A stretch of DNA of 64,000 bases from a virus. Taxonomy: Duplodnaviria > Heunggongvirae > Uroviricota > Caudoviricetes. The stretch is taken from IMG/VR virus record IMGVR_UViG_3300033146_002139, positions 103,707-167,706 of that record. One strand, 5' to 3'. The position numbers and the translations under genes were made by a program. The notes beneath the pieces are model-generated. The model saw only the letters and a list, made by a program, of their open reading frames with translations. It did no database searches and had not been told where the DNA came from. Shown one piece after another: positions 10,296-62,577 of the stretch (positions are counted from its first letter, which is position 1; the number at the start of each line of letters is the position of its first letter).

Positions 10296-11477
10296 TTAAA
10301 TCATTGAAATTTTAACCGGGTTAGCCACGAACCCTATATCGGATACAAAATTATCTCCGATTACTTTTCTTAAAATATTTGTTGCTCCGTTCCAGTCTGC
10401 ATTCACTAATTTATTGATACTTGACTGAAATAATCCTCGCTTAATTCTTTTACCTTTATACTTCTTGTGCTTACCTATCTTTTCAAGAGCTAAAGCATCA
10501 CATTTACTGGTATAGCTTTCTTCATTTCTTATCACTTTAATTCCAATTTCTTCTGATTTATACTCTAATTGCTGAATAAATCGCAAATAAGGGATGTTTA
10601 CAAAGTTTTGATTATTAACCTTACCAATGTTAGCATTTTGTTTCCAGCCTTGATTATAGCCAACTACAATATTTTTAATATCATTCTCCAAACAGTAGTT
10701 AATTATATATCTTGAGCTTTTATGCAGGTAATCATTAATCTTGTTGTTCCTTTTTAAAGTTAATCTGTTAATTCTATTAGATAATTGCTTATCGCCTACA
10801 AAACTCTGTAATTTAGCTTTCTTTTTATTGTAGTATTGATTTATGGATTTTAATGGTTTGCCATTACCAATTATAGGTTTTAAACCTGCATTGGTTGAAG
10901 TTGCAAATAAATTATTAACTCCTAAATCAAGACTGATGTATAAATCTTCGTTTAGATTTTCATAGGCTTTTACCTCCTTTTTGTAAACTATTTCAATAAT
11001 ATTATATCCAACTCTAGGAAGTATCCTAACTTGATTTACATTATTTACTTTAGTCTTTAATGGATTTATATTAGATTTTTTAGGAAACAATATAAATCCA
11101 TTTTTAAGTTTAACTTGCTGATTAGTAAAGATAATAATATTTTTACCGTTTTTATCTTTATACTTTGGTATTCTAGGTTTAGCTTTAAACTTCTTTGGAT
11201 TCTTAAAAAAAGCTTTTTCTGCTTTAATAAAAGACTTCCAGTTTTTAAATAAAACTTTAATTATTTGCTGAGATGTTTGAGCAAGTAAAGCTCTGTAATC
11301 GGACTGGTTCTCTTTAGCTAATTGAGTTGTTAAGGTATATTCTGACAATAAGTTACCATTACCTATAAACTCTTGACGAATTAAGTAATTACAGTAGTTG
11401 TATAAATTCTTGGATAAGAAATGTAAGCTATCCATATTTGAATTTTGTTTTACAATATGTCTCTCAACTCTTTGCAT
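10296..11477 (-). CDS. tnpB: TnpB-like protein (IS200/IS605 OrfB family), apparently lacking the RuvC-II Glu and the zinc finger
   Basis: N-terminal OrfB_IS605 region (QRVERHIV...LYNYCNYLIRQ), RuvC-I ISLDLGVNNLFAT and RuvC-III NADWNGATNIL are present. At the RuvC-II position it has NIVVGYNQGW where the paralogues have IIIETLDLK / LYFETLDIK / ISIEDLKIK. The C-terminus has a single Cys instead of CxxC..CxxC. Confidence 0.75.
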   Translation of the reverse strand: MQRVERHIVKQNSNMDSLHFLSKNLYNYCNYLIRQEFIGNGNLLSEYTLTTQLAKENQSDYRALLAQTSQQIIKVLFKNWKSFIKAEKAFFKNPKKFKAKPRIPKYKDKNGKNIIIFTNQQVKLKNGFILFPKKSNINPLKTKVNNVNQVRILPRVGYNIIEIVYKKEVKAYENLNEDLYISLDLGVNNLFATSTNAGLKPIIGNGKPLKSINQYYNKKKAKLQSFVGDKQLSNRINRLTLKRNNKINDYLHKSSRYIINYCLENDIKNIVVGYNQGWKQNANIGKVNNQNFVNIPYLRFIQQLEYKSEEIGIKVIRNEESYTSKCDALALEKIGKHKKYKGKRIKRGLFQSSINKLVNADWNGATNILRKVIGDNFVSDIGFVANPVKISMI

Positions 11478-19385: not shown

Positions 19386-20642
19386 TTAATTCTCCAATTC
19401 TATAAGATATTTTATTGTTGTCTGATTTCCTCTGTAGACAATCATTTCATTATTCTTTAAATCTATTCCTCCATGCGCGAAAACAGAATCATAGTCTCCT
19501 TTATTTTTTAATGTGTTAGCTGAAAGATTATAACAGCTTGAATCGTGTTTATGTATATCCATTTGCTTTCCAGTGTGAACTTTAAATACCGCCATAAATC
19601 CCGTATTATCACTACCACCTGACCAATAAGAACCTCTTAAAGATGTATATCCAAGAGATTTTCTTGCTTTATCTGCAAAGTATATCCCATCACCAAACAT
19701 AGAACCTGTGTAAACTGCAGAAGATGGTCTTATTAAAAGTCCTGTCTTCATTATATTTATAAAGTTCTCATTCCTGGAGCCGTGGAATAACAATGCTGTC
19801 GTTTTATCTTTGGAATCGGCAATGTTTTTATTAAAAACTTTTAATGTAGCTTTATTTGTAACTTCGTATGCCGTTTTAAACTTGTTAGATATTCCGCCAA
19901 GATGTTTTTTAATTTCAACTTCCTGTTTTGGATTGATTGTACTAACAGAAATACCAAGGACATCCAACATTGTTTTGTTGTCTAAAGTTTCTCCGGTTTC
20001 TTCTTCAGCCTCTAGTATCCCTACTTTTGTTGCCATAGAATCAAGATTGTCCTGTTCTTGTATAAGCATTTTTTTTATTTCAGCTACATTTTTTCTTAAA
20101 ATACCTGCCGTTTCTTCTATGAGATGGTCTGATACTCTCCCCATTCTTCGAGGTATTACCTGAAATAGGTCTGTAAGTGTTTCGTTGAAAAAGGTTACTT
20201 CTCTGCCTGTTTTAGCGTTAGAAAATAAGATATTTAGTAGTCTTTGTGCTTCGTCAACTTGCGACTGAGTAACAGACTCGGCAGATACAGTATAATTCGC
20301 TGCCACAGACTTGTTGGTATAATTCATTAATTGGATTATCAATTTTTCTATAACGGCGTTAGGAATTGGAGTATATCCAGATGATTTCGAGACAACCTTA
20401 ATCGAACGTCTTTCTGTTTCATCTTTATATCCTTTTGCTATTTTAGACTTATATACTTTATCCCATTTGTACATAGGGTAAATCTTCTCAGCCATACTAG
20501 CCCCATATCTTCCATACTCGGCTCTAAATCTGTCTCCGGTGATTTCTGTCATTCTATAAATCTTGTTGTTGTTTCTTCCCCCTGTTCCGTTTACCATTAT
20601 TAGCTCTACTGCTTGTCCATTCTCCACGTTTCCTGCTAACAA
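19386..20642 (-). CDS. PARP-like ADP-ribosyltransferase (WGR domain + helical region + H-Y-E catalytic domain)
   Basis: WGR-like N-terminus (KIYRMTEITGDRFRAEYGRYGAS...KWDKVYKSKIAKGYKDET). Catalytic LLFHGSRNENFINIMKTGLL (His-Gly-Ser), GSMFGDGIYFADKARKS (Tyr) and NNEMIVYRGNQ (Glu) match the PARP1-type H-Y-E signature. Confidence 0.75.
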   Translation of the reverse strand: MLAGNVENGQAVELIMVNGTGGRNNNKIYRMTEITGDRFRAEYGRYGASMAEKIYPMYKWDKVYKSKIAKGYKDETERRSIKVVSKSSGYTPIPNAVIEKLIIQLMNYTNKSVAANYTVSAESVTQSQVDEAQRLLNILFSNAKTGREVTFFNETLTDLFQVIPRRMGRVSDHLIEETAGILRKNVAEIKKMLIQEQDNLDSMATKVGILEAEEETGETLDNKTMLDVLGISVSTINPKQEVEIKKHLGGISNKFKTAYEVTNKATLKVFNKNIADSKDKTTALLFHGSRNENFINIMKTGLLIRPSSAVYTGSMFGDGIYFADKARKSLGYTSLRGSYWSGGSDNTGFMAVFKVHTGKQMDIHKHDSSCYNLSANTLKNKGDYDSVFAHGGIDLKNNEMIVYRGNQTTIKYLIELEN

Positions 20643-20753
20643 AAATTTACATAAATATAAACTTTTGAGTTTTACTGCTTCATCGTACTCGATTTCAATA
20701 TGATTCTCTCTACTCTCGTTGATTTTAATACTCCGCAGTCGTTAATTTCCTTA

Positions 20754-21896
20754 TTAGCCTAAGGTATTATATTTTACACAATTCTTAATATTGATACTTG
20801 CATTCAAATCTCTGTCCATTGAAAAACCACATTTGCAATTATATGTTCTATCTGTGAGCTTTAAGTCTCTTTTTATACTTCCACATTTAGAACAAGTTTT
20901 ACTACTTGGAAACCATTTGTCTATTATTCTTAGCTCAATATTATATTTTTTGCATTGTTGAGTAAGAAACTCTCTAAAATAATAAAACATTTGGTCTTTA
21001 ATTGCTTTTGATAAATGCTTATTTTTCAACATACTTTTAATTTTCAAATCTTCAATACTAATAAATTTTGGGTTTAGACTAACCAGTGAATTTACTACAA
21101 ATCTTACACATTCGACTCTAATATTGCTTAAGCGATAATGTAATCTTTGAACTCTTAATTTGTTTTTATATATGTTTCTGCTAGACTCTCCTTTTGTCTT
21201 AGTTTTAAATTTACGACTTAATTGTCGCTGTGATTTTTTTAATTTCTTTTCTAATCTTTTTATTTTCTTAGTTTTGTTTATATTTTTAAAGAATTCACCC
21301 TCACTTGTAACCGCAAATTCTTTAATTCCTAAATCGATTCCGATAGCTTTAGTTTTCTTTTTTGGATTCATCTTTTTGGATTCTTCCTCAACTAAAACAC
21401 TTACAAAGTATCTATCAGCTATTCGAGATACAGTTCCGGACTTAACTTTAGAATTTAAGGGAATATATCCAAATTCTTTTAATCTTACAAATCCTAATGT
21501 GGGGATTTTAATTCTATGTCTTTCTAAAGTCCAATCATTTTTATTGTTCTTAGGTAGGTACATCTTGACTTTGCTATCTTTCTTTTTAAATCTTGGAAAT
21601 TTAGACTGTTTTTTAAAAAACTTCTTAAATGCCTTTTCTCCATTGAAAATAGACTGCTTTACAGATTTACTACTAACTTCTTTTATCCAGGAAAATTCCT
21701 TGTTAAATAATAGAAAATTATTATTAAGCCACTTGCTGAAGCTCATTGCAGATACAAATCTTTGTTCTTTTTCGTAAATCTCTTTATTGTATTTCAAGTA
21801 AAAATTATAAATAAATCTACAAGTCCCAAGAGTTTTATGCACTTTTTCTTTCTGCTTATCGTTTAGCTTTATTTCTATTTTATAGGATTTTAGCAT
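20754..21896 (-). CDS. tnpB: TnpB (OrfB, RuvC-like RNA-guided nuclease family)
   Basis: OrfB N-terminal domain, RuvC-I IGIDLGIKEFAVT, RuvC-II ISIEDLKIKSM, CSKCGS...CKCGF zinc finger, and RuvC-III DRDLNASINI. Confidence 0.8.
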   Translation of the reverse strand: MLKSYKIEIKLNDKQKEKVHKTLGTCRFIYNFYLKYNKEIYEKEQRFVSAMSFSKWLNNNFLLFNKEFSWIKEVSSKSVKQSIFNGEKAFKKFFKKQSKFPRFKKKDSKVKMYLPKNNKNDWTLERHRIKIPTLGFVRLKEFGYIPLNSKVKSGTVSRIADRYFVSVLVEEESKKMNPKKKTKAIGIDLGIKEFAVTSEGEFFKNINKTKKIKRLEKKLKKSQRQLSRKFKTKTKGESSRNIYKNKLRVQRLHYRLSNIRVECVRFVVNSLVSLNPKFISIEDLKIKSMLKNKHLSKAIKDQMFYYFREFLTQQCKKYNIELRIIDKWFPSSKTCSKCGSIKRDLKLTDRTYNCKCGFSMDRDLNASINIKNCVKYNTLG

Positions 21897-22307
21897 CTAA
21901 AACTCTTTTGAAATTAAGTCAAGACTTTTAGTAATTTTAAATGCTGTATTATTCTCTGCGTTTTCGGCTTTTACTTTATACTTTGAGATAAAAGCTCCTT
22001 TCTCTAGTATGCCTATTTTTAGATAACCATCTTTATATTCTCCAAAAGCAGTACAATTATCATCTCCTACATTGATACTAAAGCCTGAAAATGTAAAAAC
22101 ATCTTCAGAAATTCTTGTTACAAGGTTCTTGTGTAGCATTGCATAGCCATGTACTCCTCCCATGTAGTCAAAATACTGAGACTCTGAATAATATCTAGTA
22201 CCACCGTCTGTTATTTTGACTGGAATTAAAGAACGGTTTTTATGCCAAGTCCTTAAAGTCTTGGATGTGACACCTATTTTTTTTGCAAATTTACCTGATG
22301 AAAACAT
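21897..22307 (-). CDS. MerR-type HTH protein resembling the N-terminal DNA-binding domain of IS607 TnpA but without a serine-recombinase catalytic domain
   Basis: KFAKKIGVTSKTLRTWHKNRSLIPVKITDGGTRYY (MerR-like HTH). The rest (136 aa in total) has no S-recombinase motif. It abuts tnpB (stop to start 21897/21896). Confidence 0.5.
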   Translation of the reverse strand: MFSSGKFAKKIGVTSKTLRTWHKNRSLIPVKITDGGTRYYSESQYFDYMGGVHGYAMLHKNLVTRISEDVFTFSGFSINVGDDNCTAFGEYKDGYLKIGILEKGAFISKYKVKAENAENNTAFKITKSLDLISKEF

Positions 22308-22392: not shown

Positions 22393-24669
22393 TTATCTTT
22401 TGACGACTTCTCCTGGCTGATTTTTTAAGAAGTTGGAATTTTCATCGTTCTTCTTAACGGCAATGCCGGATTGGTCCTCGTACATTTCACGGGTTAATCG
22501 TTGGTCTTTCCCTTCCGTAATTATCCCTCTGTCTCTTATAAACTCTGTATACATAGCTCCTTTATAGCCTGATAATTTGTTTTTTGCATATTTTGTTTTT
22601 ACTGCAACCTTTTCTGCATCAATACCTATATCACTATTGAAGCATAATAGCCATACTAGATTTGCATTATAAGCAAATTTTCCTGTTTCCATAATATCAT
22701 CTAATGTAGGTTCTTTATACCTTCCATCGTGACTACTTTTCTTTCTTAATTCTACCGTAACAAATAATGGGATATTATAGGTATCTACTAAGTTTTTAAC
22801 TAGATTTGCTCTAAGTATATTTTGAAGTCTCAAATCCATATGTCCTACATCAAGATTAAAAACTCCATCTATAAGAACCATAACATCTTTACTTTTATAA
22901 CTTTCAATAGTCTTTTCTAGGTGGTATCTTAAAATGTCGTAGCTCACGATAGTTTCTATGTCAAATATCAACAATCTATCATTTAGCCATTCTTGTAATT
23001 TATTTGTCGCATATGTGTATATACCTCGAAGAGACATCATTTCTATTCTTGTTTCTGCATTAACACCATCATCAGCTTTTATTTCAAACTCTATATTAGC
23101 AACATCAGACAAATGTCTAGGTTTTTGTATTTGGTTTATAGTCAAATTTCCTTGACTTAAAATTGCTACAATTCTGTTTATCATTATGTCGAAATTATCA
23201 TCAAGTGAATATATTATTTGGTAGAGCTTTTTGTTTGATATCATTGCATCTACGAACACATTTAAAGAAATCTGTGTGTTGTGGGTAAGTATAAAATCTT
23301 TAGTAGCATAAAGATGGTCTTTTGAATCAACAGATATGCAAGTAGCATAATCATCAAAAGCATATTCTATTGATTTAATATAATTATATTCTCCCTTTTT
23401 TGCAGGTTTTACTTTTTCAGCTTTTCTTTTTAACTTAAAAGGATTTATGTCAGAGCTGAATTTTACATACACTCTGTAATTTATCCTAGTTTCCTTGTAA
23501 GAGCCATCTGCTAATTTATATCCTCCCATTCTTTGAGAGAAAGATGCTCTAGCCCCTAACGACCTAGCAATCTGAATTACATTGTCTTTTAGTTTTTCGG
23601 AAGTAGTAGAATACTCCGTAACTCTGCTACTCTCCACATAAGAACCGTCTGTATCAAACAACCCTCTTAGCATTTCTAGTCTATCATCTATTGTTGACAT
23701 TAGGTAATCCGACGGTATGAATTTTTCAAAACTTTTTTTATTTTTTAATCCATAGCTATCCAATACTCTTCTGAAGTCCTGTATTCCAGAGACGAAGTAA
23801 TCGCAATTATCTCCCTTTCTCTTTTTTAAAACCCCTTTGTGTTTTTTAAGTAGCATATTAAAGTCGTCAACCATCTCCTTGTCTAAAGATGCAAATCCAA
23901 AAAAATTCCCTGAATAACAACCATCTCCAAGAAACATCCCTAGTAAATAAGGGTGCATTTTTAATTCTTTTTTTGCATACTGAACAGGAGCTATTCTTTT
24001 TATTGCGTGTCTTTTTGCCCCGTTATTGCGGTGTAATGTTGCAACGATTTCTTTAGTAGTTTTTATAGAACCAGTCTTTTCTCCTTTTCTATTTTTATTG
24101 GTATAGGTGTACCATCTATGTTCTAAATCAGCAAAAGTAATAGACCCATCAGACATAGTAACTTTGTAAAGAGGTCTCTTATTTTGAGGGAAAACATCTA
24201 AAACTTTGGTAGGTTTTCCGTCTGACCCTATAACAAAATCTCCGACTTTTAAGTCCCCATTTTTTACATATCCATCTGGAGTTGGAATGAGTTCATTGTC
24301 CCAAAGCGCCTTTCCGATATTACTAGCCCCTCCTATAATGTATAGCCCATTCTGAACCCCATCCAATAAACCTTCTGTCTGACTAAATGTTCTCAGTTTA
24401 TGCCCTATTAAATCTTCTCTTGCATAATCCCTTGTTATCTTATCTGATAATCTTTTTTTCAAATCAGGGACTTCGTATTCGGTATAAGTACCTGCTACTG
24501 AATTTGAAAACAGGTTTGATACAAATTCTACATCGTTATCGCTAAACTCACTTACCTTTGTTCCGGTTTTCTTTTCTATAAAATCAACAAACTCTGATAC
24601 GAAAAACATCCTGTTTGTTTCTGGGATATCCTGCTTAGGAGTGTTGTTGAATATTTCAGCATGATTCAT
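22393..24669 (-). CDS. DnaB-like replicative helicase interrupted by an intein
   Basis: The Walker A GGASNIGK | TQISL is split by a 344-aa insert. The C-extein has Walker B VMVLIDGVFNLD and a RecA-fold C-terminal domain. ATGA-coupled to the primase. Confidence 0.8.
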   Translation of the reverse strand: MNHAEIFNNTPKQDIPETNRMFFVSEFVDFIEKKTGTKVSEFSDNDVEFVSNLFSNSVAGTYTEYEVPDLKKRLSDKITRDYAREDLIGHKLRTFSQTEGLLDGVQNGLYIIGGASNIGKALWDNELIPTPDGYVKNGDLKVGDFVIGSDGKPTKVLDVFPQNKRPLYKVTMSDGSITFADLEHRWYTYTNKNRKGEKTGSIKTTKEIVATLHRNNGAKRHAIKRIAPVQYAKKELKMHPYLLGMFLGDGCYSGNFFGFASLDKEMVDDFNMLLKKHKGVLKKRKGDNCDYFVSGIQDFRRVLDSYGLKNKKSFEKFIPSDYLMSTIDDRLEMLRGLFDTDGSYVESSRVTEYSTTSEKLKDNVIQIARSLGARASFSQRMGGYKLADGSYKETRINYRVYVKFSSDINPFKLKRKAEKVKPAKKGEYNYIKSIEYAFDDYATCISVDSKDHLYATKDFILTHNTQISLNVFVDAMISNKKLYQIIYSLDDNFDIMINRIVAILSQGNLTINQIQKPRHLSDVANIEFEIKADDGVNAETRIEMMSLRGIYTYATNKLQEWLNDRLLIFDIETIVSYDILRYHLEKTIESYKSKDVMVLIDGVFNLDVGHMDLRLQNILRANLVKNLVDTYNIPLFVTVELRKKSSHDGRYKEPTLDDIMETGKFAYNANLVWLLCFNSDIGIDAEKVAVKTKYAKNKLSGYKGAMYTEFIRDRGIITEGKDQRLTREMYEDQSGIAVKKNDENSNFLKNQPGEVVKR
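23278..24309 (-). mobile_element. class 3 intein with LAGLIDADG homing endonuclease (within the helicase gene)
   Basis: Ala1 start (ALWDNELIPTPDG), block B GSITFADLEHRW (T..H..W), LAGLIDADG motifs LLGMFLGDG and LRGLFDTDGS, block F DDYATCISV (Cys), block G FILTHN followed by Thr+1. Together these give the WCT triplet. Confidence 0.65.
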
Positions 24670-25856
24670 ATTTTATTTTCTTCCCATAGTTTTAGTAATA
24701 AAGAATTAGCGTCTTTAATGTATCCTCCAACACCATACTGTTTTGCTATATCTTTGACCGTTCTTCTTTCTACATTAAAGCAACTATCTTGCATATAATT
24801 CATCAACACCTCCTTAGCACGTTCTCCTGGAATGTCATTATCCAATAGTAATACAATTTTATACCCTTTTAAAACATCTAGTTGCTGAAGTTTTTCACTA
24901 TCCCTCCTAGCGCTTGCATCCATAAGTGCTACAGAGTTAACCCCTAGAGTTTGAAGGCTTAGAGCATCTACGACACCTTCCGTTATAAATATAGGAGTTT
25001 TGAATTTATTAAAGCTCTTTGGAATATATAATAGAGGCTTTTCTCTTCCTCCCATATAAGAATACTTCTTGTAATTTCTTTGTGCATCTCCAACCGAGAT
25101 ACCTTGAAAATAACTTATAAACCTTTCTTTATTCCCTTGCCCTACCGGAACATCTGCATTAAAATCATCGTTGATATTATAAAAAGGTATAAGGTACGAA
25201 GAATACTTAAAAGCTACCAATCCACTAGATTCAATAGCTTCTCTTATTTTTTCATTTGGAAGTGTTTTGTTTTCCATTAAAAGGTAGCCTAATAGGGATT
25301 GCCATTCTCCATATTTAGATATCTTCTTGCCTTTTAATAACTTTTTTAGAACGTCCGCATCTTTATTTACGATGTTGTTTTCTCGAACAACTTCTTTGCT
25401 TATTTTTCTTTCTGTAACCAAATAATGGCTATCAATATCTTCGGTTAATAAAATCACCAAGCTATTGTATAAATTCTCATAATCATTAGTCGTTATCTCA
25501 TATTCCTTTTCTACTTCTGACTCGATTTTTACTTTTTTAATTTCAGCTATATAGTTTTTCTTTTTATACTTCCATAGCTTGTCTCCAGGTTTTACATCAA
25601 AATGCTCATTAAACCATTCCATTGTGTCTACAAAGTCAAGGCCTAATACTTCTTGTACTAAATCAATACTATCTGTTCCAATTCCACATCCAAAACACTT
25701 AAAGGTATTTCGCCTGATATCGAAACTTAAACTTGCAGTATTAGAGTCATGTCCCTTTATACAAGGAATATTTCTATTACCCTTGTGGTTGATATCTAAC
25801 TCTTTTGCAACGTCAAGAATTGGCACCGATTTAGCAACTTCTTCAACTCCTGCCAT
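24666..25856 (-). CDS. DnaG-type DNA primase
   Basis: CHC2 zinc finger (IPCIKGHDSNTASLSFD...FKCFGCGIGTDSIDLV) and a Toprim domain (IFITEGVVDALSL...LLLDNDIPGERA). Confidence 0.8.
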   Translation of the reverse strand: MAGVEEVAKSVPILDVAKELDINHKGNRNIPCIKGHDSNTASLSFDIRRNTFKCFGCGIGTDSIDLVQEVLGLDFVDTMEWFNEHFDVKPGDKLWKYKKKNYIAEIKKVKIESEVEKEYEITTNDYENLYNSLVILLTEDIDSHYLVTERKISKEVVRENNIVNKDADVLKKLLKGKKISKYGEWQSLLGYLLMENKTLPNEKIREAIESSGLVAFKYSSYLIPFYNINDDFNADVPVGQGNKERFISYFQGISVGDAQRNYKKYSYMGGREKPLLYIPKSFNKFKTPIFITEGVVDALSLQTLGVNSVALMDASARRDSEKLQQLDVLKGYKIVLLLDNDIPGERAKEVLMNYMQDSCFNVERRTVKDIAKQYGVGGYIKDANSLLLKLWEENKI

Positions 25857-25858
25857 CT

Positions 25859-27136
25859 TTACCCCTTATTATTTCGCCAACCTTCTTTTTTATTTATATC
25901 TCCAAGGAAGTTTAACAATCCTTTGTAAACATGAGATACTCTTAGGTTTGGAGATGATGTGTATTTTGTAAAGAAACTTTCGTATCTTTCTAAAATTTGG
26001 TTACTAGATAACATACACTCTCCGAATATATGTTGGTCTAAATGTAAAAATTGTTTTATTATGATAATTAGTTCATCTTTAGGAAAGTTTTCTAACCACC
26101 ATCTTAAAACCTTAGAATAGTCGAAATCGGATTCATCAATCGGAAGAATCATTTCTCTGTCCCATATAAAAGTATTGCTATCTATTTTACTGCAAGCATC
26201 AGATAGATAAATAGAGCGAAACTTATTTCTAGTTCTGTTGTCATTCAATTTTCTATCGAATTGATTTTTAAGTGTTTCCCATAATAAAGAATATCTTCTA
26301 CTGTATGTAGGCATCCAAGCCTTCATATCATTAGATATTCTGTCAAATTGAACACCTTTGTACTTTTGTTGCAACTGCTCTCTTTCCTTTATAGGAACAT
26401 TATCTAAGAACCAATTTATTACCTTTTCGTAACTTCCTTTTGTTCCACCGACTTTATTTAGCTTAACTCCAGTATGCCACTCTAAACCTTCTCCCTCTAT
26501 ACAAAGAGCTGCTTTGTCTACATTCATAGGTTTTCTTGAATATTGAGGGTTTATATCATCTCCGTTGTTTATAGACTCATCGAATAAGCTTCCCTTGTTA
26601 TCAGATTTGTTAGCCTTGTCTAATATTGTAGACGACTTTTCTCCCCTAGAACCCCTCTTAGAACTATAAGGTTTAATTAATCTATAATATTTATTATTAA
26701 TCTCTAATTTATTATTAATCTTTAAATCATTATTAATCTCTAATATATTATTATTAATCTCTAAGTTAATCTTTAATAAATCATAATACTTTATATTAAT
26801 TAAATTAATACTATGCGTCGCATGTACACATGAAGGATGTCTAAAATTACTTGAAAAAACTTTGATAACATCGTCATCAAAAAGCTTAATTAAATTTAAT
26901 TTTTTAAGTCTCCTTTTGTATGTCTCGATTTTCTTATCACTCCACCCATAAAGCCTGTGCAAGCTTATATTAGGGCATTTAATAACCTCATCTTCTGCTG
27001 ATGCACTTTTAGCTAGATAGTAAGTATACATAGCTAGTAAGTTAGCAGGGTCGCTCGCAGTTAGGATTATTTTAAGAGCATATTTCGGGGTTGGTAGTAT
27101 CTCAAACATCTCACTTGTTTCTATTTCTGAACTCAT
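25859..27136 (-). CDS. hypothetical protein, candidate replication initiator (carries internal iterons)
   Basis: 425 aa. Its internal repeat region encodes INNNILEINNDLKINNKLEINNKYY. It sits directly upstream of the primase and helicase genes. Confidence 0.5.
   Translation of the reverse strand: MSSEIETSEMFEILPTPKYALKIILTASDPANLLAMYTYYLAKSASAEDEVIKCPNISLHRLYGWSDKKIETYKRRLKKLNLIKLFDDDVIKVFSSNFRHPSCVHATHSINLINIKYYDLLKINLEINNNILEINNDLKINNKLEINNKYYRLIKPYSSKRGSRGEKSSTILDKANKSDNKGSLFDESINNGDDINPQYSRKPMNVDKAALCIEGEGLEWHTGVKLNKVGGTKGSYEKVINWFLDNVPIKEREQLQQKYKGVQFDRISNDMKAWMPTYSRRYSLLWETLKNQFDRKLNDNRTRNKFRSIYLSDACSKIDSNTFIWDREMILPIDESDFDYSKVLRWWLENFPKDELIIIIKQFLHLDQHIFGECMLSSNQILERYESFFTKYTSSPNLRVSHVYKGLLNFLGDINKKEGWRNNKG
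26685..26800. repeat. iteron-like direct repeats (about 4-5 copies of ATTATTAATCT(C/T)TAA at roughly 20-bp spacing)
   Basis: The sequence ...tattattaatctctaatttattattaatctttaaatcattattaatctctaatatattattattaatctctaagttaatctttaat... lies inside the CDS. Confidence 0.5.
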
Positions 27137-38429: not shown

Positions 38430-38786
38430 TTGATTACTACTTTTAAGGGCTATGAGATGAAAAAATTATACAGATACTCGTATCAAATCGACCACTCTAA
38501 CTTTTTCACTTTAGCTGTTGATGTGAAATTTATAAAAGAAGAATATTTTGTTTTAAAAGAAACAGAAAAATCATACATTATAAACTATGGATTCAGACAG
38601 AAGGTTGTAAGAAAAAAAGGAATAAATCTATTTGCTTTTGATACAGAAGAAAAAGCATTTTACAATTTTACCAATAGAAAAAAAAGTCAGCAAGAACATT
38701 TAAAAGCTAAACTTGCAGTAATAAATACTGTTGTTGAAAAGATAGATAAAGAGGGTTTTGATGGACAAAACAAATTTAGGAAATAG
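38430..38786 (+). CDS. hypothetical protein
   Basis: Preceded by TTGACA-17-TACATT at 38402-38430; an alternative start at ATG 38456 (MKKLYRY). Confidence 0.45.
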   Translation: MITTFKGYEMKKLYRYSYQIDHSNFFTLAVDVKFIKEEYFVLKETEKSYIINYGFRQKVVRKKGINLFAFDTEEKAFYNFTNRKKSQQEHLKAKLAVINTVVEKIDKEGFDGQNKFRK

Positions 38787-39576
38787 AATAAAAGACTATG
38801 AGGCGATAGAAAAAAAGAAGCTTTTTTCGCAAATTCCAATAGTAATTAGATTGGATGGTAAAAATTTTTCAAGATTTACAAAAGGAATGGAAAGACCATT
38901 TGACTTAAAGTTTAAAGAGATGATGCAAAAAACAACTAAATTCTTAGTTGACTATACAAATGCGAAAATAGGATACACACAGTCAGATGAAATATCGTTA
39001 GTGTTGTATTCTGATAACCACAAAAGACAAGTTTTTTTAGACGGAAAGAAGGATAAAATAAATTCTTTAATTGCTTCAAAATGCTCTGTGTTTTTCAATT
39101 CTTTACTTGAGGATTATTTTCCAGAAAGAAAAAGCTTGTTACCTATATTTGATTGTAGAAGTTTTAATGTTCCAACACTAGAAGAAGGGGTAAATGCAAT
39201 TCTATGGAGAGAATTAGATGCTACAAAAAACAGCATATCTATGTTAGCTCGACATCACTTTTCTCATAAACATCTACATGGGGTGCATACAGGAGATATG
39301 CTTGATATGCTTTACAGTATTGGAATCAATTGGAATGAACTAGAGACAAGCCTTAAAAGAGGGACTTATTACCAAAGAGTAAAAAGGCTAACCAAATTCA
39401 CTACATCTGAAATAGAAAAACTTCCCCCTAACCACGATGCTCTAACAAATCCAAACTTAATGATAGAAAGAAGTCTTGTCGAGAAGCTTGAGATGCCGAT
39501 AATAACAAAAGTTACAAACCAAACTAATGTGTTTTTTTACGGAGCTTTACCCAAAATAGAACTAAAGGATGTATAG
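38758..39576 (+). CDS. Thg1-like protein (tRNA-His guanylyltransferase family 3'-5' nucleotidyltransferase)
   Basis: IPIVIRLDGKNFSRF and KIGYTQSDEISLVL (the conserved SDE), plus a C-terminal NSISMLARHHFS region. Confidence 0.75.
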   Translation: MMDKTNLGNRIKDYEAIEKKKLFSQIPIVIRLDGKNFSRFTKGMERPFDLKFKEMMQKTTKFLVDYTNAKIGYTQSDEISLVLYSDNHKRQVFLDGKKDKINSLIASKCSVFFNSLLEDYFPERKSLLPIFDCRSFNVPTLEEGVNAILWRELDATKNSISMLARHHFSHKHLHGVHTGDMLDMLYSIGINWNELETSLKRGTYYQRVKRLTKFTTSEIEKLPPNHDALTNPNLMIERSLVEKLEMPIITKVTNQTNVFFYGALPKIELKDV

Positions 39577-44723: not shown

Positions 44724-45923
44724 ATGTCAAAAATTTTTGTAACAGATAATAAAGACAAACCTTTGCTTCCAACAAGTGAAGCTAGAGCTAGATTGTTATT
44801 GAAAAATAATAAAGCTACTGTTGTGTCTATATTCCCTTTTACAATAAAACTTAAAAAAGAAATACTAAAACCAGCAGGAGAGTTTAAATGTGGAATAGAT
44901 GACGGAGCGAAATGGATAGGGATTGCAATTGCGAATAACAAAAAAGTTGTATTTGCAGGTAACATAAAACTGAGGCAAGATGTTAGCAGAAAAATACTTT
45001 CACGAAGTCAATATAGGCGAGCTAGGAGGACTAGAAATTTAAGACACCGTAAGGCTAGATTTTTAAACAGAGGCTCTAAAGGTTGGATTCCGCCAACAAT
45101 AAAACAAAAGAAAGATTCAGTTTTAAGAGTTATTGACTTTATGAAAAAACGATTAAACATAACCGAATGTGTTGTCGAACAGGGACAGTTCGATATTTCC
45201 TCGATGAGTGCAGGTTACAAGCTAACTGGGAAAGAATACCAATTAAGTCAATATAAAGGTAGTAACTTTAGAGAAAAAGTCCTTTGGAGAGATAAATTTG
45301 AATGTCAAAAATGCAAGTCAAAAGAGAGGCTTCAGGTACATCATATTACCTTCAAATCTAACGGTGGAACTAATATTGTTTCCAATGGAACAACTCTTTG
45401 TGAAAAGTGCCATAAATCCCTACACAATAAAGAGTGGGCATTAAAAAAGAAAGTAAAACACTTTAAATACCCAACTCATCTTCAGCAAGGAAAGAATTAT
45501 TTATTCTCTGAATTAAGTAAAAGGATTAGTAGTACAAGAATTTGTTTTGGCTGGATGACAAGTAAAAACAGAAAAGAATTGGGCTTAGAAAAAGACCATT
45601 ATTTGGACGCAAGTGCAATGATTAAAACAAACAAGTTCAATTGTACTCCTTATCAGATTAAGCCTAGAAGAAGCAAATTAAATATTAAAAGTGCAACTAA
45701 AAAATGTACAGAAAAAAACGGCTTTAGACATTTTGATATTGTTAAAAGCCATAATAGAAATCATGGAATTATTGTAGGCTCAATACGAAGCTTGAAGAAA
45801 TCGGCAATAACCTTAAGAACCTCTTTTGATGATAATTTCGCAGTAAGTTATAATAAAAGTAAAATACTAGAGCGACCTAAAGGTTTGATATTTATAAATC
45901 TACAGGTTATACAAAAACTATAA
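44724..45923 (+). CDS. iscB: IscB (OMEGA RuvC-HNH RNA-guided nuclease, Cas9-ancestor family)
   Basis: PLMP domain (NKDKPLLPTSEARARLL), RuvC-I CGIDDGAKWIGIAI, Arg-rich bridge helix RSQYRRARRTRNLRHRKARF, HNH CQKCKS...LQVHHITFKSNGGTNIVSNGTTLCEKCHKSLHN, RuvC-III KDHYLDA. Confidence 0.8.
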   Translation: MSKIFVTDNKDKPLLPTSEARARLLLKNNKATVVSIFPFTIKLKKEILKPAGEFKCGIDDGAKWIGIAIANNKKVVFAGNIKLRQDVSRKILSRSQYRRARRTRNLRHRKARFLNRGSKGWIPPTIKQKKDSVLRVIDFMKKRLNITECVVEQGQFDISSMSAGYKLTGKEYQLSQYKGSNFREKVLWRDKFECQKCKSKERLQVHHITFKSNGGTNIVSNGTTLCEKCHKSLHNKEWALKKKVKHFKYPTHLQQGKNYLFSELSKRISSTRICFGWMTSKNRKELGLEKDHYLDASAMIKTNKFNCTPYQIKPRRSKLNIKSATKKCTEKNGFRHFDIVKSHNRNHGIIVGSIRSLKKSAITLRTSFDDNFAVSYNKSKILERPKGLIFINLQVIQKL

Positions 45924-49523: not shown

Positions 49524-49652
49524 ATGTCAAGAACTGAAACAATAATAATTAGACTAACAAAAGAAGAGAAGTCTAATATTGAAAGAAAAGCTAAAGAGCA
49601 AGGATTGTCGGTCTCATCTTACCTAAGAAGCTTAGGGATGAGAGATAAATAA
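49524..49652 (+). CDS. ribbon-helix-helix (MobC/CopG-like) mini-protein coupled to tnpB
   Basis: Translated by hand: MSRTETIIIRLTKEEKSNIERKAKEQGLSVSSYLRSLGMRDK; AAGGAG RBS; the stop TAA overlaps the tnpB ATG. Confidence 0.6.
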   Translation: MSRTETIIIRLTKEEKSNIERKAKEQGLSVSSYLRSLGMRDK

Positions 49653-50746
49653 TGATTAAAAAGCTTAACAAAGCATATAAATTTAGATTATATCCAAATG
49701 CGACACAGCAAGAGTATTTTGCAAAGACATTTGGAAGTGCTAGGTTTATCTACAATAAAATGTTAAGCGATAAAATTGATTATTATAAGCTAGAGAAGAA
49801 AACCTTAAACAATACTCCTGCTCAATATAAAAAAGAGTTTGAGTGGTTGAAAGAAGTGGATTCATTAGCTTTAGCAAATAGTCAAATGCAATTAAAAACT
49901 GCATTTATGAATTTTTTCAAAAGAAAAGGTGTTGGATTTCCTAATTTCAAAAGTAGAAGAAATAAAAAGTCATATAAAACTAATAATCTTAATGGTACAA
50001 TTAAAGTTGAATTAAATAATGTAAAACTGCCAAAGATAGGTTTTGTTAAAGCAGTAACACATCGTAGAGTTGAAGGTAAAATAAAAAGTGCAACAATATC
50101 TCAAACTCCAACTGGCAAATATTTTGTATCAATTTTAGTTGAATATGAAAAAGAGATAAAGGAAGTAAAAAGTAATAAAGTAATAGGATTAGATTTTTCA
50201 ATGAAAGATTTATATGTAAGTAGTGATAATGAGAAAGCCAATCAGCATCATTATTTTAGAAAATCTTTAGATAAAATCAAATTTGCTCAACGAAGTTTAT
50301 CAAGAAAAGTAAAAGGAAGTAGTAATCGTAACAAACAAAGACTTAGATTAGCTAAAGTTCACGAGAAAGTTAGCAACCAAAGAAACGACTTTTTGCATAA
50401 AACATCTACTTATTTATCAAAGAAATACGATGCTATAATAATTGAAACTCTTGATTTGAAAGAGATGAGCAAACACTTGAAGCTTGGAAAATCAGTACAC
50501 GATAATTCTTGGGCTACATTTGCAGCATTATTAAAATACAAATCAGAGCAATCAGGAAAGCAGTTAGTTCAAATTGATAAGTGGTTTCCAAGTAGCAAAA
50601 AATGTTCTAATTGTGGAAATGTAAAAGAGAAGTTAGAGTTGTCAGAACGAACATACAATTGTGGAAGCTGTAATCTTAGTATTGATAGGGATTACAATGC
50701 TTCATTAAATATTAAAATGGCTGGGACAGTCAAGTTAGCTTGGTAA
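49652..50746 (+). CDS. tnpB: TnpB (OrfB, RuvC-like RNA-guided nuclease family)
   Basis: RuvC-I IGLDFSMKDLYVSS, RuvC-II AIIIETLDLKEM, zinc finger CSNCGN...CGSCN, RuvC-III DRDYNASLNI. Confidence 0.8.
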   Translation: MIKKLNKAYKFRLYPNATQQEYFAKTFGSARFIYNKMLSDKIDYYKLEKKTLNNTPAQYKKEFEWLKEVDSLALANSQMQLKTAFMNFFKRKGVGFPNFKSRRNKKSYKTNNLNGTIKVELNNVKLPKIGFVKAVTHRRVEGKIKSATISQTPTGKYFVSILVEYEKEIKEVKSNKVIGLDFSMKDLYVSSDNEKANQHHYFRKSLDKIKFAQRSLSRKVKGSSNRNKQRLRLAKVHEKVSNQRNDFLHKTSTYLSKKYDAIIIETLDLKEMSKHLKLGKSVHDNSWATFAALLKYKSEQSGKQLVQIDKWFPSSKKCSNCGNVKEKLELSERTYNCGSCNLSIDRDYNASLNIKMAGTVKLAW

Positions 50747-51185: not shown

Positions 51186-51314
51186 ATGAAACGAACTGAA
51201 ACAATAATAATTAGGTTAACAAAAGAAGAAAAAGCTAATATTGAAAGAAAAGCTAAAGAGCAAGGTTTGTCTTTATCGTCTTATTTAAGAAGTTTAGGGA
51301 TGAAAGATAAATAG
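51186..51314 (+). CDS. ribbon-helix-helix mini-protein coupled to tnpB (paralogue of the 49524 copy)
   Basis: MKRTETIIIRLTKEEKANIERKAKEQGLSLSSYLRSLGMKDK. A TTGACT promoter-like element lies at 51131. The stop TAG overlaps the GTG start of tnpB. Confidence 0.6.
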   Translation: MKRTETIIIRLTKEEKANIERKAKEQGLSLSSYLRSLGMKDK

Positions 51315-52432
51315 TGAAAACCTATAAATATAAAATATACAATAGTAAAAAGAATAAGAAATTATGCCAAAAGATTAATATTGCTGGTGTGGTTTTTAAT
51401 TATTGTATTGCTCTTCAAAGAGGTTATTATAGGTTTTATGGTAAACAATTAAATATTTATCAACTACAAAAACACTTAACTAAAAAGAAAAAATTAAATA
51501 AGTATTTCTTTTGGAAAGAACTAAGCTCTCAAACTATTCAAGATATAACCGAGCGAATAGATAAATCGTATAAACAGTTTTACCGTAATTTAAAAAAGGG
51601 AGTTAAAACAAGCCCTCCTAAATTCAAAAAAGTTAAGAAATACAAATCTATAACTTTCAAGAATACTGGATATAAATTCGATGGTAATAAAATTGCAATA
51701 CAAAAAGATTTATTTAAGTTTTCAAATAGTAGAAAGTTTCAGGGGAATATTAAACGAGTAATAGTAAAGCGAAACAATCTAGGAATGATGTTTTTATATG
51801 TAATAACAGATTTTGTCGATATTCGAGCAATCAAGTCAGTTAAAAGTGCTGGTTGCGATTTTGGATTAAAACAATTTTTGTCGTTTTCAGATAAAAGCAC
51901 GATTGATTCACCTTTATTTTTCAAAAAGAATTTAAAGAAAGTAAAAAGATTATCTAAAAAATTTTCCAAGAAAAAGAAAGGTAGTAACAACAGGAAACGA
52001 GCAAAATATAATCTTGGCAAGTTAAACTATAAAATAATGAATAAAAGAACAGATTTTCATTATAAACTAGCAAAAGATTTAGCGATAGACTATGGTATTT
52101 TATACTTTGAAACACTGGATATTAAATCAATGCAGAGACGATGGGGAAGGAAAATAAATGACTTAGGATTTTATAATTTTCTTCAAATACTAAAACAACA
52201 AGGATTAAAATACGGTTGCGAAGTAGTCCAAATTGATAAGTGGTTTCCAAGTAGTAAAACTTGCTCAGGTTGTGGTTATATAAAGAAAGACTTAACTCTA
52301 AAAGATAGAGCGTATAACTGTCCTGAATGTAAATTATCAATCGACCGAGATTTGAATGCATCAATAAATATAAAACGAGAAGGGGTATCTTCTCTTAAAA
52401 CCAAGACAGTAAAACTTTCGAGTATGTCTTAA
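51314..52432 (+). CDS. tnpB: TnpB (OrfB family), GTG start
   Basis: RuvC-I AGCDFGLKQFLSFS, RuvC-II ILYFETLDIKSM, zinc finger CSGCGY...CPECK, RuvC-III DRDLNASINI. Confidence 0.8.
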   Translation: MKTYKYKIYNSKKNKKLCQKINIAGVVFNYCIALQRGYYRFYGKQLNIYQLQKHLTKKKKLNKYFFWKELSSQTIQDITERIDKSYKQFYRNLKKGVKTSPPKFKKVKKYKSITFKNTGYKFDGNKIAIQKDLFKFSNSRKFQGNIKRVIVKRNNLGMMFLYVITDFVDIRAIKSVKSAGCDFGLKQFLSFSDKSTIDSPLFFKKNLKKVKRLSKKFSKKKKGSNNRKRAKYNLGKLNYKIMNKRTDFHYKLAKDLAIDYGILYFETLDIKSMQRRWGRKINDLGFYNFLQILKQQGLKYGCEVVQIDKWFPSSKTCSGCGYIKKDLTLKDRAYNCPECKLSIDRDLNASINIKREGVSSLKTKTVKLSSMS

Positions 52433-55569: not shown

Positions 55570-55772
55570 GCCTAGAAAGATTTAAAAAGAAAGTAGACTA
55601 TATATACGACAATAATAAAAGATGGAGGAAAGGGCAAGCTTTATTCAATATCCTTTATATTGAGTATCCTGATTTTGCAGATGAGATAAGGGGTACTATT
55701 TTCGACCCTTTTTATGACAACAATGCTATAGACAAGTGCTATATGAAGATGGAAAAAGATAAAATAATATAA
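55566..55772 (+). CDS. hypothetical protein
   Basis: 68 aa. Confidence 0.45.
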   Translation: MSLERFKKKVDYIYDNNKRWRKGQALFNILYIEYPDFADEIRGTIFDPFYDNNAIDKCYMKMEKDKII

Positions 55773-55781
55773 TAATCATTT

Positions 55782-55860
55782 GGGGATGGATTGGTTTCGA
55801 TTGGATGTAAAGCTTACAAGAGCAAATCTCAAGACAGCGGTTCGAATCCGCTCATCTCCA
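55782..55860 (+). tRNA. 79-nt tRNA-like / tmRNA tRNA-like-domain-like element (perfect acceptor + T-arm, non-canonical D/anticodon region)
   Basis: GGGGATG...AGCGG-TTCGAAT-CCGCT-CATCTCC-A gives a 7-bp acceptor stem and a canonical T-arm. The 5' end GGGGAUGGAUUGGUUUCGAUUGG resembles the tmRNA 5' end GGGGCUGAUUCUGGAUUCGACGGG. I could not find a 5-7-5 anticodon arm. Confidence 0.4.
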
Positions 55861-56097
55861 TCAATAGAGGCGAGAATGAAAGAAAGTGTGTTAATTAAGA
55901 GCAAGCCAAATTACTATGCAATAGAATACAGGAAAGGGACGGTGCTTTTGCAAAGAAAAGTGGTCGAGTGCGGGACAGACCCTGCAATATCAACTGAAGA
56001 AGAGGTTATTTTATATTTATGTAAAAAAATCGAAGAGTTAGAATGTAAAACAGGAGACAAAAAGTGAAGAATATATTTTGTTCAAAAAAGGAAATGT

Positions 56098-61377: not shown

Positions 61378-62577
61378 TTATCCTTTTATAACCATTAATG
61401 GTGTTAGTTTATGCTCTATACTAACTAAGTCTTTTTGCTCTTCCATTACTATATCTATTGACTTGTAAGCTGAAGGAGCTTCGTCTAAATCATCTACAGT
61501 ATTTATAGAATGTATAATGCCTTGGGAATCAAGAATTTTTTTCTCGGAATCAATATCTAAATCTTCTTTAGCCTTGGTCCTGCTCATCTTTCTTCCAGCT
61601 CCATGACTTGCTGAGTTAAAAGAATCTTTATTTCCTAGACCCTTTACTATATAAGAAGACGTTCCCATTGACCCAGGAATTACACCGATTTCGCCTTTTC
61701 TTGCAGAGATAGCGCCTTTTCTATGCACCATAACATTTTTACCAAAGTGATTCTCAATTCTAGCATAGTTATGTTTTACGTCTATTAACCCAGAAAGGCT
61801 AAAATTGTATTTTTCGCTAAGGATGTTTTTAAAGCTTAGCATTATATTTTTCATCATTAGCAATCTATTTTCTCTTGCATATTCCACACAGTATTCCATT
61901 TCTCTTATATAGGACATTCCTACAGCAGAGTGTATAGGTAAAAATGCAAGGTCTAATTTTGGATTTACTACAGAATAATACTGTTCATTTACCTCTTTCG
62001 CCATTGCGTTGTAAGCCTTAGCAATTTGATAGCCTAAGTTTCGGCTTCCACTATGAATCATCACCCAAATAAAGTTATCTTTATCTTTTTGAATTTCGCA
62101 AAAATGATTCCCAGAGCCGAGGGTTCCTAGAGAATTTATTGCGTTATTATAGTGGTCTTCTAGTACGGGGCAATCTCCTTGAAGAGGAATTGATTCCATA
62201 ATATGTTTTCTTTCAGCATTTTCTAGTTGGTGCCTACTAAACCCTGTCGGTATTACTTTTTCTATCTCTGCCTTTATAAGTAAAAGTTTCTCCTTACTAA
62301 CTTCGTCGGTTTTCCATTTAGTCTTCAGTGCTGCGACTCCACACCCAATATCTACTCCGATTGCGTTTACAATTACTACATCTTCAGTAGCTAACACTCC
62401 TCCAATGGGCATCCCATATCCCTGGTGAACATCGGGCATTAATGCTATATGCTTGAAAGCAAAAGGTAAGTTTGCCAAATTAACTGCTTGGTCAATAGCT
62501 CCTTGTTCAGGATTGTCGCACCAAGACTTAATGTGCAGACGAATTGCATCTCCGCCAATATCATTTATATACAACAT
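61378..62577 (-). CDS. rtcB: RtcB-family RNA ligase (3'-phosphate/5'-OH RNA-splicing ligase)
   Basis: LMPDVHQGYGMPIGGV, GSGNHFCEIQ, HSGSRNLG, NYARIENHFG, PGSMGTSSYIV and SASHGAGRKMSR are all RtcB metal/GMP-site motifs. Confidence 0.8.
   Translation of the reverse strand: MLYINDIGGDAIRLHIKSWCDNPEQGAIDQAVNLANLPFAFKHIALMPDVHQGYGMPIGGVLATEDVVIVNAIGVDIGCGVAALKTKWKTDEVSKEKLLLIKAEIEKVIPTGFSRHQLENAERKHIMESIPLQGDCPVLEDHYNNAINSLGTLGSGNHFCEIQKDKDNFIWVMIHSGSRNLGYQIAKAYNAMAKEVNEQYYSVVNPKLDLAFLPIHSAVGMSYIREMEYCVEYARENRLLMMKNIMLSFKNILSEKYNFSLSGLIDVKHNYARIENHFGKNVMVHRKGAISARKGEIGVIPGSMGTSSYIVKGLGNKDSFNSASHGAGRKMSRTKAKEDLDIDSEKKILDSQGIIHSINTVDDLDEAPSAYKSIDIVMEEQKDLVSIEHKLTPLMVIKG

Follow-up and report, generated by a model that had tools for sequence, protein, structure and literature searches.

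Our analysis of a 64,000-nucleotide stretch of viral DNA (hereafter the window; positions 103,707 to 167,706 of the IMG/VR record IMGVR_UViG_3300033146_002139, Caudoviricetes) indicated that the gene of a phage-type DnaB-like helicase is very probably interrupted by a mobile class 3 intein, which sits in the P-loop (GK/T; a slash between residues marks a splice junction) and would be spliced by the class 3 route. The precursor gene was found on the minus strand at 22393..24669 in the list of open reading frames (ORFs) and encodes 758 residues with a calculated mass of 86.9 kDa. The insert comprises precursor residues 121-464, which is exactly 23278..24309 (minus strand), and lies inside the Walker A motif, GGASNIGK/TQISL. 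It has 344 residues, from Ala1 to Asn344, with a calculated mass of 39.4 kDa, and was recognized as an intein by homology to Protein Data Bank (PDB) entries, by its relatives and by an AlphaFold2 model. The N-extein (residues 1-120; 24310..24669, minus strand) ends with the first part of the Walker A motif, its tail being YIIGGASNIGK. The C-extein (residues 465-758 and the stop codon; 22393..23277, minus strand) starts with the Walker A Thr as Thr+1 and goes on to Walker B and the other DnaB_C motifs. The N-terminal junction reads ...GLYIIGGASNIGK / ALWDNELIPTPDG... and the C-terminal junction reads KDFILTHN/TQISLNVFVD.... The rejoined exteins give GGASNIGKT in a 414-residue spliced protein with a calculated mass of 47.5 kDa.

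An earlier note, made from the letters of the window alone, had described a Walker A motif split by 344 residues that rejoins as GASNIGKT, and the coordinates agreed with it to the base. The sizes it predicted for the precursor and the spliced protein, about 87 and about 47 kDa, correspond to the calculated masses, and the strings it quoted were all located: GSITFADLEHRW (intein residues 55-66), DDYATCISV, LLGMFLGDG (122-130) and LRGLFDTDG (214-222).

Splicing blocks A, B, F and G were recognized in the insert, all on the minus strand. Block A (ALWDNELIPTPDG; 24271..24309) begins with Ala as residue 1, as had been noted, in place of Cys or Ser, so the intein has no N-terminal nucleophile. Block B (GSITFADLEHRWYT; 24106..24147), aligned to 6bs8 and 6rix, contains Asp61 at B:7, His64 at B:10 and Trp66 at B:12. 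The Trp two residues after the His was correctly recognized before, since His64 and Trp66 fall on the H-Q-W of M. smegmatis (Msm) DnaBi1 and M. chimaera (Mch) DnaB1 in the HMMER alignments. But the description of block B as T..H has to be corrected: the residue at B:7, three before His64, is Asp61 (A-D-L-E-H-R-W), and the Thr of GSIT is at position 4 of the block. Block B is therefore DxxH, as in Msm DnaBi1. In block F (YATCISVDSKDHLYAT; 23302..23349), the internal Cys of DDYATCISV is Cys324 at F:4 (codon 23338..23340), which lines up with the catalytic Cys in the class 3 structures 6bs8 and 6rix and is the predicted initiating nucleophile. Block G (DFILTHN) with Thr+1 (23275..23298) contains Thr342 at G:5, His343 and Asn344, followed by the Thr+1 codon at 23275..23277; the THN ending and the Thr after it were confirmed in the sequence. 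In our intein alignment (A1), His64 was invariant and Trp66 was conserved in at least 90% of the sequences.

Class 3 inteins are defined by a non-nucleophilic residue 1 that co-varies with Trp at B:12, Cys at F:4 and Thr at G:5 (the WCT triplet), together with Thr or Ser at +1, and they occur mostly in the P-loops of helicase-like ATPases; in biochemical terms, the class is marked by an obligate Cys nucleophile in block F and by a branched intermediate formed there (PMC2807308). The WCT positions have been restated in a later work, where GK/T is termed the 'classic' P-loop intein insertion (PMC5050341). All five class 3 sequence criteria were present here, namely Ala1, Trp66, Cys324, Thr342 and Thr+1. 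The first reading of the insert, as a class 3 intein in a helicase P-loop, is supported in this respect, at the level of sequence.

The best phmmer matches of the intein in the PDB were the class 3 DnaB mini-inteins 6rix and 6riy (M. chimaera) and 6bs8 (M. smegmatis), at about 1e-12 (best 1.8e-12), followed by gp41-1 and PI-SceI. In the alignments with 6bs8 and 6rix, ADLEHRW falls on ADAQHQW and ADAAHQW, and ATCISVDSKDHLY falls on VRCVEVDNPxHLY. The Pfam splicing models Intein_splicing and Hom_end_hint gave sub-threshold matches only. Therefore, the case for an intein rests on the PDB homology and on the wider family.

Msm DnaBi1 has been reported to possess a block B DxxH motif and to be located at P-loop 'insertion site b' (PMC6195587). 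Both it and Mch DnaB1 occupy the same P-loop position as the present intein, between the Lys and the Mg-coordinating Ser or Thr, and share with it Ala1, DxxH-x-W, the catalytic Cys at F:4 and the THN ending, with splicing lobes 37–39% identical. However, they lack an endonuclease, being mini-inteins of cellular DnaB proteins, and have Ser+1, whereas the present one has an endonuclease and Thr+1, and its host is a short, DnaB_C-only phage helicase.

The earlier note had named a mycobacteriophage DnaB intein as the class 3 prototype. The biochemical prototype is indeed the MP-Be DnaB intein of phage Bethlehem (PMC2807308), but its host protein, gp51, has been labelled RDF by a later study. Like the present intein, MP-Be is full-length (341 residues), with an endonuclease domain and Thr+1. 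Compared by published residue positions, its His65, Trp67, Cys320, Thr339 and Asn341 correspond to His64, Trp66, Cys324, Thr342 and Asn344. The spacing in block F is also the same: the Cys followed by Ile at +1, Asp at +4, His at +8 and an aromatic residue at +10, as in MP-Be Cys320, Ile321, Asp324, His328 and Phe330, which had been studied there by mutagenesis. MP-Be differs in having Pro1 after Gln-1 and Ser at B:7.

The exteins behaved as a continuous helicase only when the insert was removed. The full 758-residue protein matched Pfam DnaB_C with an E value of 0.0022, which is under the Pfam threshold, while the spliced 414-residue protein matched it at 9.5e-10 and 38.7 bits (threshold 27) in one continuous stretch. 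It follows that, when the intein is not recognized, this helicase would be mis-sized or missed in annotation. The spliced extein also matched phrog_243, the DnaB-like replicative helicase of PHROGs. A search of 5.8 billion proteins found 125 homologues of the spliced extein, the best of them 38–43% identical. No LAGLIDADG Pfam domain or motif was found among the 120 listed of these. Their P-loop was a contiguous xGK(T/S) in every inspected homologue that covers it, four of the 120 being fragments that start after the P-loop. The extein alignment (A2) had no gap at the junction, with Lys120 in every row and Thr121 in at least 90% of them, and all helicase residues invariant in the clade are retained in this extein. 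Searched against the PDB, the A2 profile matched the DnaB crystal structures 2vye and 2r6a at about 2e-26, and its vGKTaf and viDg fell on their Walker A and Walker B, respectively; the single spliced extein had no match there by phmmer, so that the profile was needed. The spliced helicase has only about 90 residues ahead of the ATPase domain, and the DnaB N-terminal domain (PF00772) was not detected in it at E ≤ 1. Therefore, 'DnaB-like' is the accurate label rather than canonical DnaB orthologue.

We also observed that this helicase clade has an invariant A-K-N-K-L-S at the position of A-K-Q-R-N-G in Geobacillus DnaB, and an invariant M-E-T-G-K at the position of R-E-S-G. The former stretch of Geobacillus DnaB is, we assume, the arginine finger site, in which case Lys would replace Arg in this clade.

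Splicing itself and its class 3 route we infer from the residues present, and the following course is proposed. An 87-kDa precursor would be made in which 344 residues split the ATP site and separate its invariant Lys from the Mg-coordinating Thr. Since residue 1 is Ala, the attacking nucleophile would be Cys324 of block F; with activation by His64, and with Trp66 and Thr342 packed against it, this Cys would attack the Lys120-Ala1 peptide bond and form a thioester branch on the intein. The N-extein would then be taken over by Thr+1 through transesterification, Asn344 would cyclise with the help of His343 and so release the intein, and an O-to-N shift would leave GASNIGKT in the 47.5-kDa helicase. 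The endonuclease of the excised 39-kDa intein presumably spreads the element by cutting the P-loop codons of intein-free helicase alleles. Because the Lys and Thr of GKT are 344 residues apart in the precursor, ATPase activity before splicing is unlikely, and helicase function can soundly be taken to depend on splicing.

Relatives of the intein were searched for with a word-indexed search (5.8 billion proteins), an exhaustive search (1.8 billion representatives), tblastn on deposited phage genomes, and in IMG/VR, GTDB and INPHARED. The 25 relatives that came from the word-indexed search are no more than 37% identical (best E 3.7e-47) and reside in PhoH-like, AAA_30, DnaB, SecA and AAA_24 host proteins. 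In nearly all of the 25, GK is followed by a non-nucleophile, and H-x-W, a Cys at F:4 and THN/T or THN/S are present. Residue 1 in relatives from the various searches is A, G, P or F. The exhaustive search gave 19,657 representatives at E ≤ 1e-3, 5,018 of them at E ≤ 1e-30; the exact 758-residue protein was a singleton among these public representatives, represented by the window's own protein. With tblastn, relatives were found in 803 deposited phage genomes, among them mycobacteriophage terminases 35% identical to the intein. The SNF2-type helicase of a 484-kb uncultured phage carries an intein that is 37.5% identical (GVGK/AGPL...LTHN/TIE). Related inteins thus sit in unrelated hosts (PhoH-like, terminase, SNF2, SecA and DnaB). 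With thousands of representatives and typical GK/T hosts, this kind of intein is abundant and its location here is typical.

Among cultured phages, gp057 of Enterococcus phage EFP01, annotated 'helicase/primase' (KY549443), and other Schiekvirus helicases carry an intein in a DnaB-like helicase. This intein is 34% identical to the present one over its whole length (APTGGGK/ALVDSE...EHIW...MTCISV...VATHN/TTW) and has two LAGLIDADG motifs, but its host belongs to another helicase lineage, and it is not marked in the KY549443 annotation table. As a separate observation, many of the strongest intein relatives (P0147-P0164) were proteins of about 900–2,200 residues with 2–5 separate matching stretches; these appear to be hosts that carry several related inteins.

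Close relatives were not found. The closest other intein in the 1.8 billion representatives, IMG/VR and INPHARED was at most 46% identical. Megablast of the gene and of the 10–34 kb part of the window against 50,697 phage records gave no match. Scans of IMG/VR, for which the extein, its profile and the intein served as queries, revealed no close relative and no intein-bearing locus, and the scan of GTDB genomes revealed intein-free relatives only, 33–52% identical over the best matched segment. No second intein was found in the window by tblastn and motif scan. We regard the element as a further member, new and divergent, of an intein kind that is well known and that lies here at its classic site.

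The middle of the insert (approximately residues 85-300; 23410..24057, minus strand), as placed by Pfam, the model and Foldseek, was a LAGLIDADG homing endonuclease domain, which matched Pfam LAGLIDADG_3 at 3e-12 and Hom_end at 6.6e-5. Motif 1, LLGMFLGDG (23920..23946, minus strand), contains the predicted catalytic Asp129 and is aligned to YLLGLWIGDG of PI-SceI (D218). Motif 2, LRGLFDTDG (23644..23670, minus strand), contains the predicted catalytic Asp221 and is aligned to FLAGLIDSDG (D326). Upstream of motif 2, Lys196 in FEKFIPS (23722..23724, minus strand) is aligned to K301. Thus D129, K196 and D221 of the intein correspond in the alignment to D218, K301 and D326 of PI-SceI, which we take to be its catalytic residues. 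D219 and G222 were invariant in A1, and D221 was conserved in at least 90%. The first acidic residue, which is lost in some relatives with a degenerate motif 1 (LLCNG, FLASPN, FLGNG), is kept in this copy.

The AlphaFold2 model of the intein (built from 22 sequences) had a mean pLDDT of 90.2 and a pTM of 0.89, with an alpha/beta central domain. Foldseek matched the model to HINT folds: PI-SceI at an E value of 1e-18 and a TM score of about 0.7, and also TliVMA, PhoVMA and PI-PfuI. The splicing lobe matched the class 3 DnaB inteins, and the central domain matched I-DmoI. PI-SceI (VMA1), the archaeal VMA inteins and PI-PfuI share the two-domain HINT and LAGLIDADG architecture, with the Asp/Lys/Asp residues conserved in PI-SceI. 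However, these inteins splice by class 1 chemistry (C1A is the listed mutation of the solved constructs), reside in another host protein, and are larger, with target chains of 361–454 residues. The two motifs, the Asp/Lys/Asp residues and the confident fold uphold the 'intact homing endonuclease' of the earlier note as far as structure is concerned; its activity is presumed from these features.

A same-site allele was found in a 745-residue helicase of the same clade (P0165, ENA contig k141_598022), where an intein likewise follows residue 120 (GTPNSGK/FLPNHTE...DHLW...STCIAV...VISHN/STL). It has LAGLIDADG motifs, Trp at B:12 and Cys at F:4 as here, but differs in Phe1, Ser at G:5 (VISHN) and Ser+1. 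The two inteins are 43% identical and their exteins 29%, and the P0165 extein is 51% identical to an intein-free homologue, P0026. The reconstructed 60-bp intein-free sites of three alleles were 57–65% identical; that of the present allele is ATTATAGGAGGGGCTAGTAATATCGGAAAG/ACACAGATTTCTTTAAATGTGTTCGTAGAT. A sporadic distribution and an intein more similar than its host make up the pattern that would be expected of homing.

Two points weigh against a mobile intein that splices by the class 3 route: its age, and the limits of the WCT triplet. As to the first, the GC content of the intein (0.339) equals that of the exteins, and so does that of third codon positions (GC3; 0.262 in the intein vs 0.266), which ruled out the idea of a compositional island. 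This similarity and the lack of a close copy in IMG/VR, GTDB and INPHARED indicate that the insertion is old, and the endonuclease of such an old resident could be inactive despite its intact motifs. The intein would then be real and still splicing but a fixed, vertically inherited passenger. We regard this as a serious possibility, though not the probable one. The indistinguishable GC and GC3 and the absence of anything above 46% identity in the databases mentioned speak for it, as does the visibly degenerate motif 1 of several relatives, which shows that decay is common in the family. However, both LAGLIDADG acidic residues and the equivalent of PI-SceI K301 are kept, the whole domain is modelled with high confidence, and the greater identity of the inteins than of the exteins between P0165 and this gene, with an intein-free sister (P0026) beside P0165, is what homing would be expected to produce.

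A further reading adds a function to a still-mobile intein. As splicing hinges on a single exposed catalytic residue, Cys324, oxidative or zinc stress would reversibly block maturation of the helicase, so that the intein might gate phage replication post-translationally as a conditional switch. Conditional splicing has been shown for the mycobacterial DnaBi1. But the switch would here operate in a virus and without a disulfide partner: Cys48, the redox partner in Msm DnaBi1, is Leu in the present intein, and the other cysteines are only those at 131 and 169, both in the endonuclease domain. The regulatory disulfide of Msm DnaBi1 is therefore impossible here, and we hold such a switch, suggested by analogy, to be unlikely.

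The second point concerns splicing. Splicing requires the WCT triplet, but the triplet alone does not suffice for it, as its graft onto gp41-1 gave cleavage but no splicing (PMC7664689), and a decayed class 3 relative, the intein of Arthrobacter Arth_1007, is listed as a pseudogene. An intein that is splicing-defective or only cleaves would make the helicase gene effectively a pseudogene or a source of fragments, but this seems quite improbable. All the residues important in MP-Be are present (His at B:10, Trp at B:12, Cys at F:4, Ile at F:5, an aromatic residue at F:14, Asn at G:7 and Thr+1), the frame is open over 758 codons, and the residues invariant in the helicase clade are kept. The overlap with the primase gene is as in intein-free relatives, and none of the scanned window ORFs stood out as another helicase.

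Still less credit can be given to a class 2 (KlbA-like) route, in which the N-terminal junction would be attacked by Thr+1 itself, leaving the block F Cys a purely structural role. The Ala at residue 1 is shared with KlbA inteins, but class 2 inteins lack WCT and have Asp at F:4 (PMC2807308), while here WCT is present and the F:4 Cys lines up with the catalytic Cys in two class 3 structures, in a family where WCT co-varies with the loss of the residue-1 nucleophile. An ordinary accessory domain with the real P-loop elsewhere, the alternative named in the earlier note, was refuted by the gain of DnaB_C on removal of the insert, by homologues colinear across the junction and by the placement of the profile Walker A on the junction, with no other GxxxxGK(T/S) on Walker A, and the insert is homologous to inteins of unrelated host proteins, so that this explanation can be practically dismissed.

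The helicase gene lies directly downstream of a gene for a DnaG-type primase with a CHC2 zinc ribbon and a Toprim domain (24666..25856, minus strand; Pfam and PHROGs), whose stop codon overlaps the helicase start by four bases (ATGA). The order of primase then helicase was also found beside the intein-free homologue P0026. The helicase may be the replicative one of this genome, a role favoured by this overlapping gene and the conserved synteny, within the 64 kb of a 168-kb contig that the window covers. Directly upstream of the primase gene, a 425-residue ORF (25859..27136, minus strand) includes a stretch of low complexity in which (L/K)EINN units recur. It had no Pfam or PHROG match, and its product could bind the origin or act as a loader in the replication module.

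An IS607/IS605-like unit (20672..22307, minus strand) was observed directly downstream of the helicase gene. It consists of a 136-residue ORF with only a MerR-type helix-turn-helix (21897..22307, minus strand; Pfam), which, as a guess, may be a truncated IS607 TnpA; a 380-residue TnpB with OrfB_IS605 and Cas12f1-like TNB domains (20754..21896, minus strand; Pfam); and, at the 3' end of the TnpB gene, a RAGATH-18 RNA of 57 bits (20672..20739, minus strand), which is probably the TnpB guide-RNA scaffold. Three more TnpB/OrfB-type 'transposase' ORFs (phrog_506 in PHROGs) were located at 10296..11477 (minus strand), 49652..50746 (plus strand) and 51314..52432 (plus strand), and a free-standing HNH endonuclease at 44724..45923 (plus strand). 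With four TnpB-type ORFs in 64 kb, two of them adjacent, and the HNH endonuclease, this genome is rich in selfish elements.

The larger ORFs of the window that were scanned included an ATP-dependent ligase, a radical SAM protein, a methyltransferase, Erf, an exonuclease, a Thg1-like enzyme and RtcB, a set of genes for DNA metabolism and for other enzymes that is typical of a large phage. A 418-residue protein (19386..20642, minus strand) that PHROGs names 'polymerase' has in fact a PARP catalytic domain and is an ADP-ribosyltransferase (PF00644, 2.5e-22). The Rfam model of transfer-messenger RNA (tmRNA) matched at 55782..55863 (plus strand) with 54 bits and an E value of 1.6e-18, but the match has only 82 nucleotides spanning model positions 1-374. 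It was absent when 55600..56050 was searched alone, and ARAGORN found no tmRNA or transfer RNA (tRNA) in the window. This match may be an element with the tRNA-like domain only, or the remnant of an att site. The Thg1-like tRNA-His guanylyltransferase (38758..39576, plus strand) and the RtcB RNA ligase (61378..62577, minus strand), found with no tRNA gene in the window, hint at a function in tRNA repair or counter-defence.

These results leave the current understanding unchanged, as the class was itself defined on a phage intein and the GK/T P-loop is already its classic site. What they add is an intein of class 3 that is divergent and full-length and has kept its endonuclease, in a large phage that is AT-rich and uncultured; as a Thr+1 class 3 intein, it is also of some interest for protein engineering. 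Together, this allele, the same-site allele P0165 and its intein-free sister P0026 make up a small natural set for studies of homing into the P-loop.

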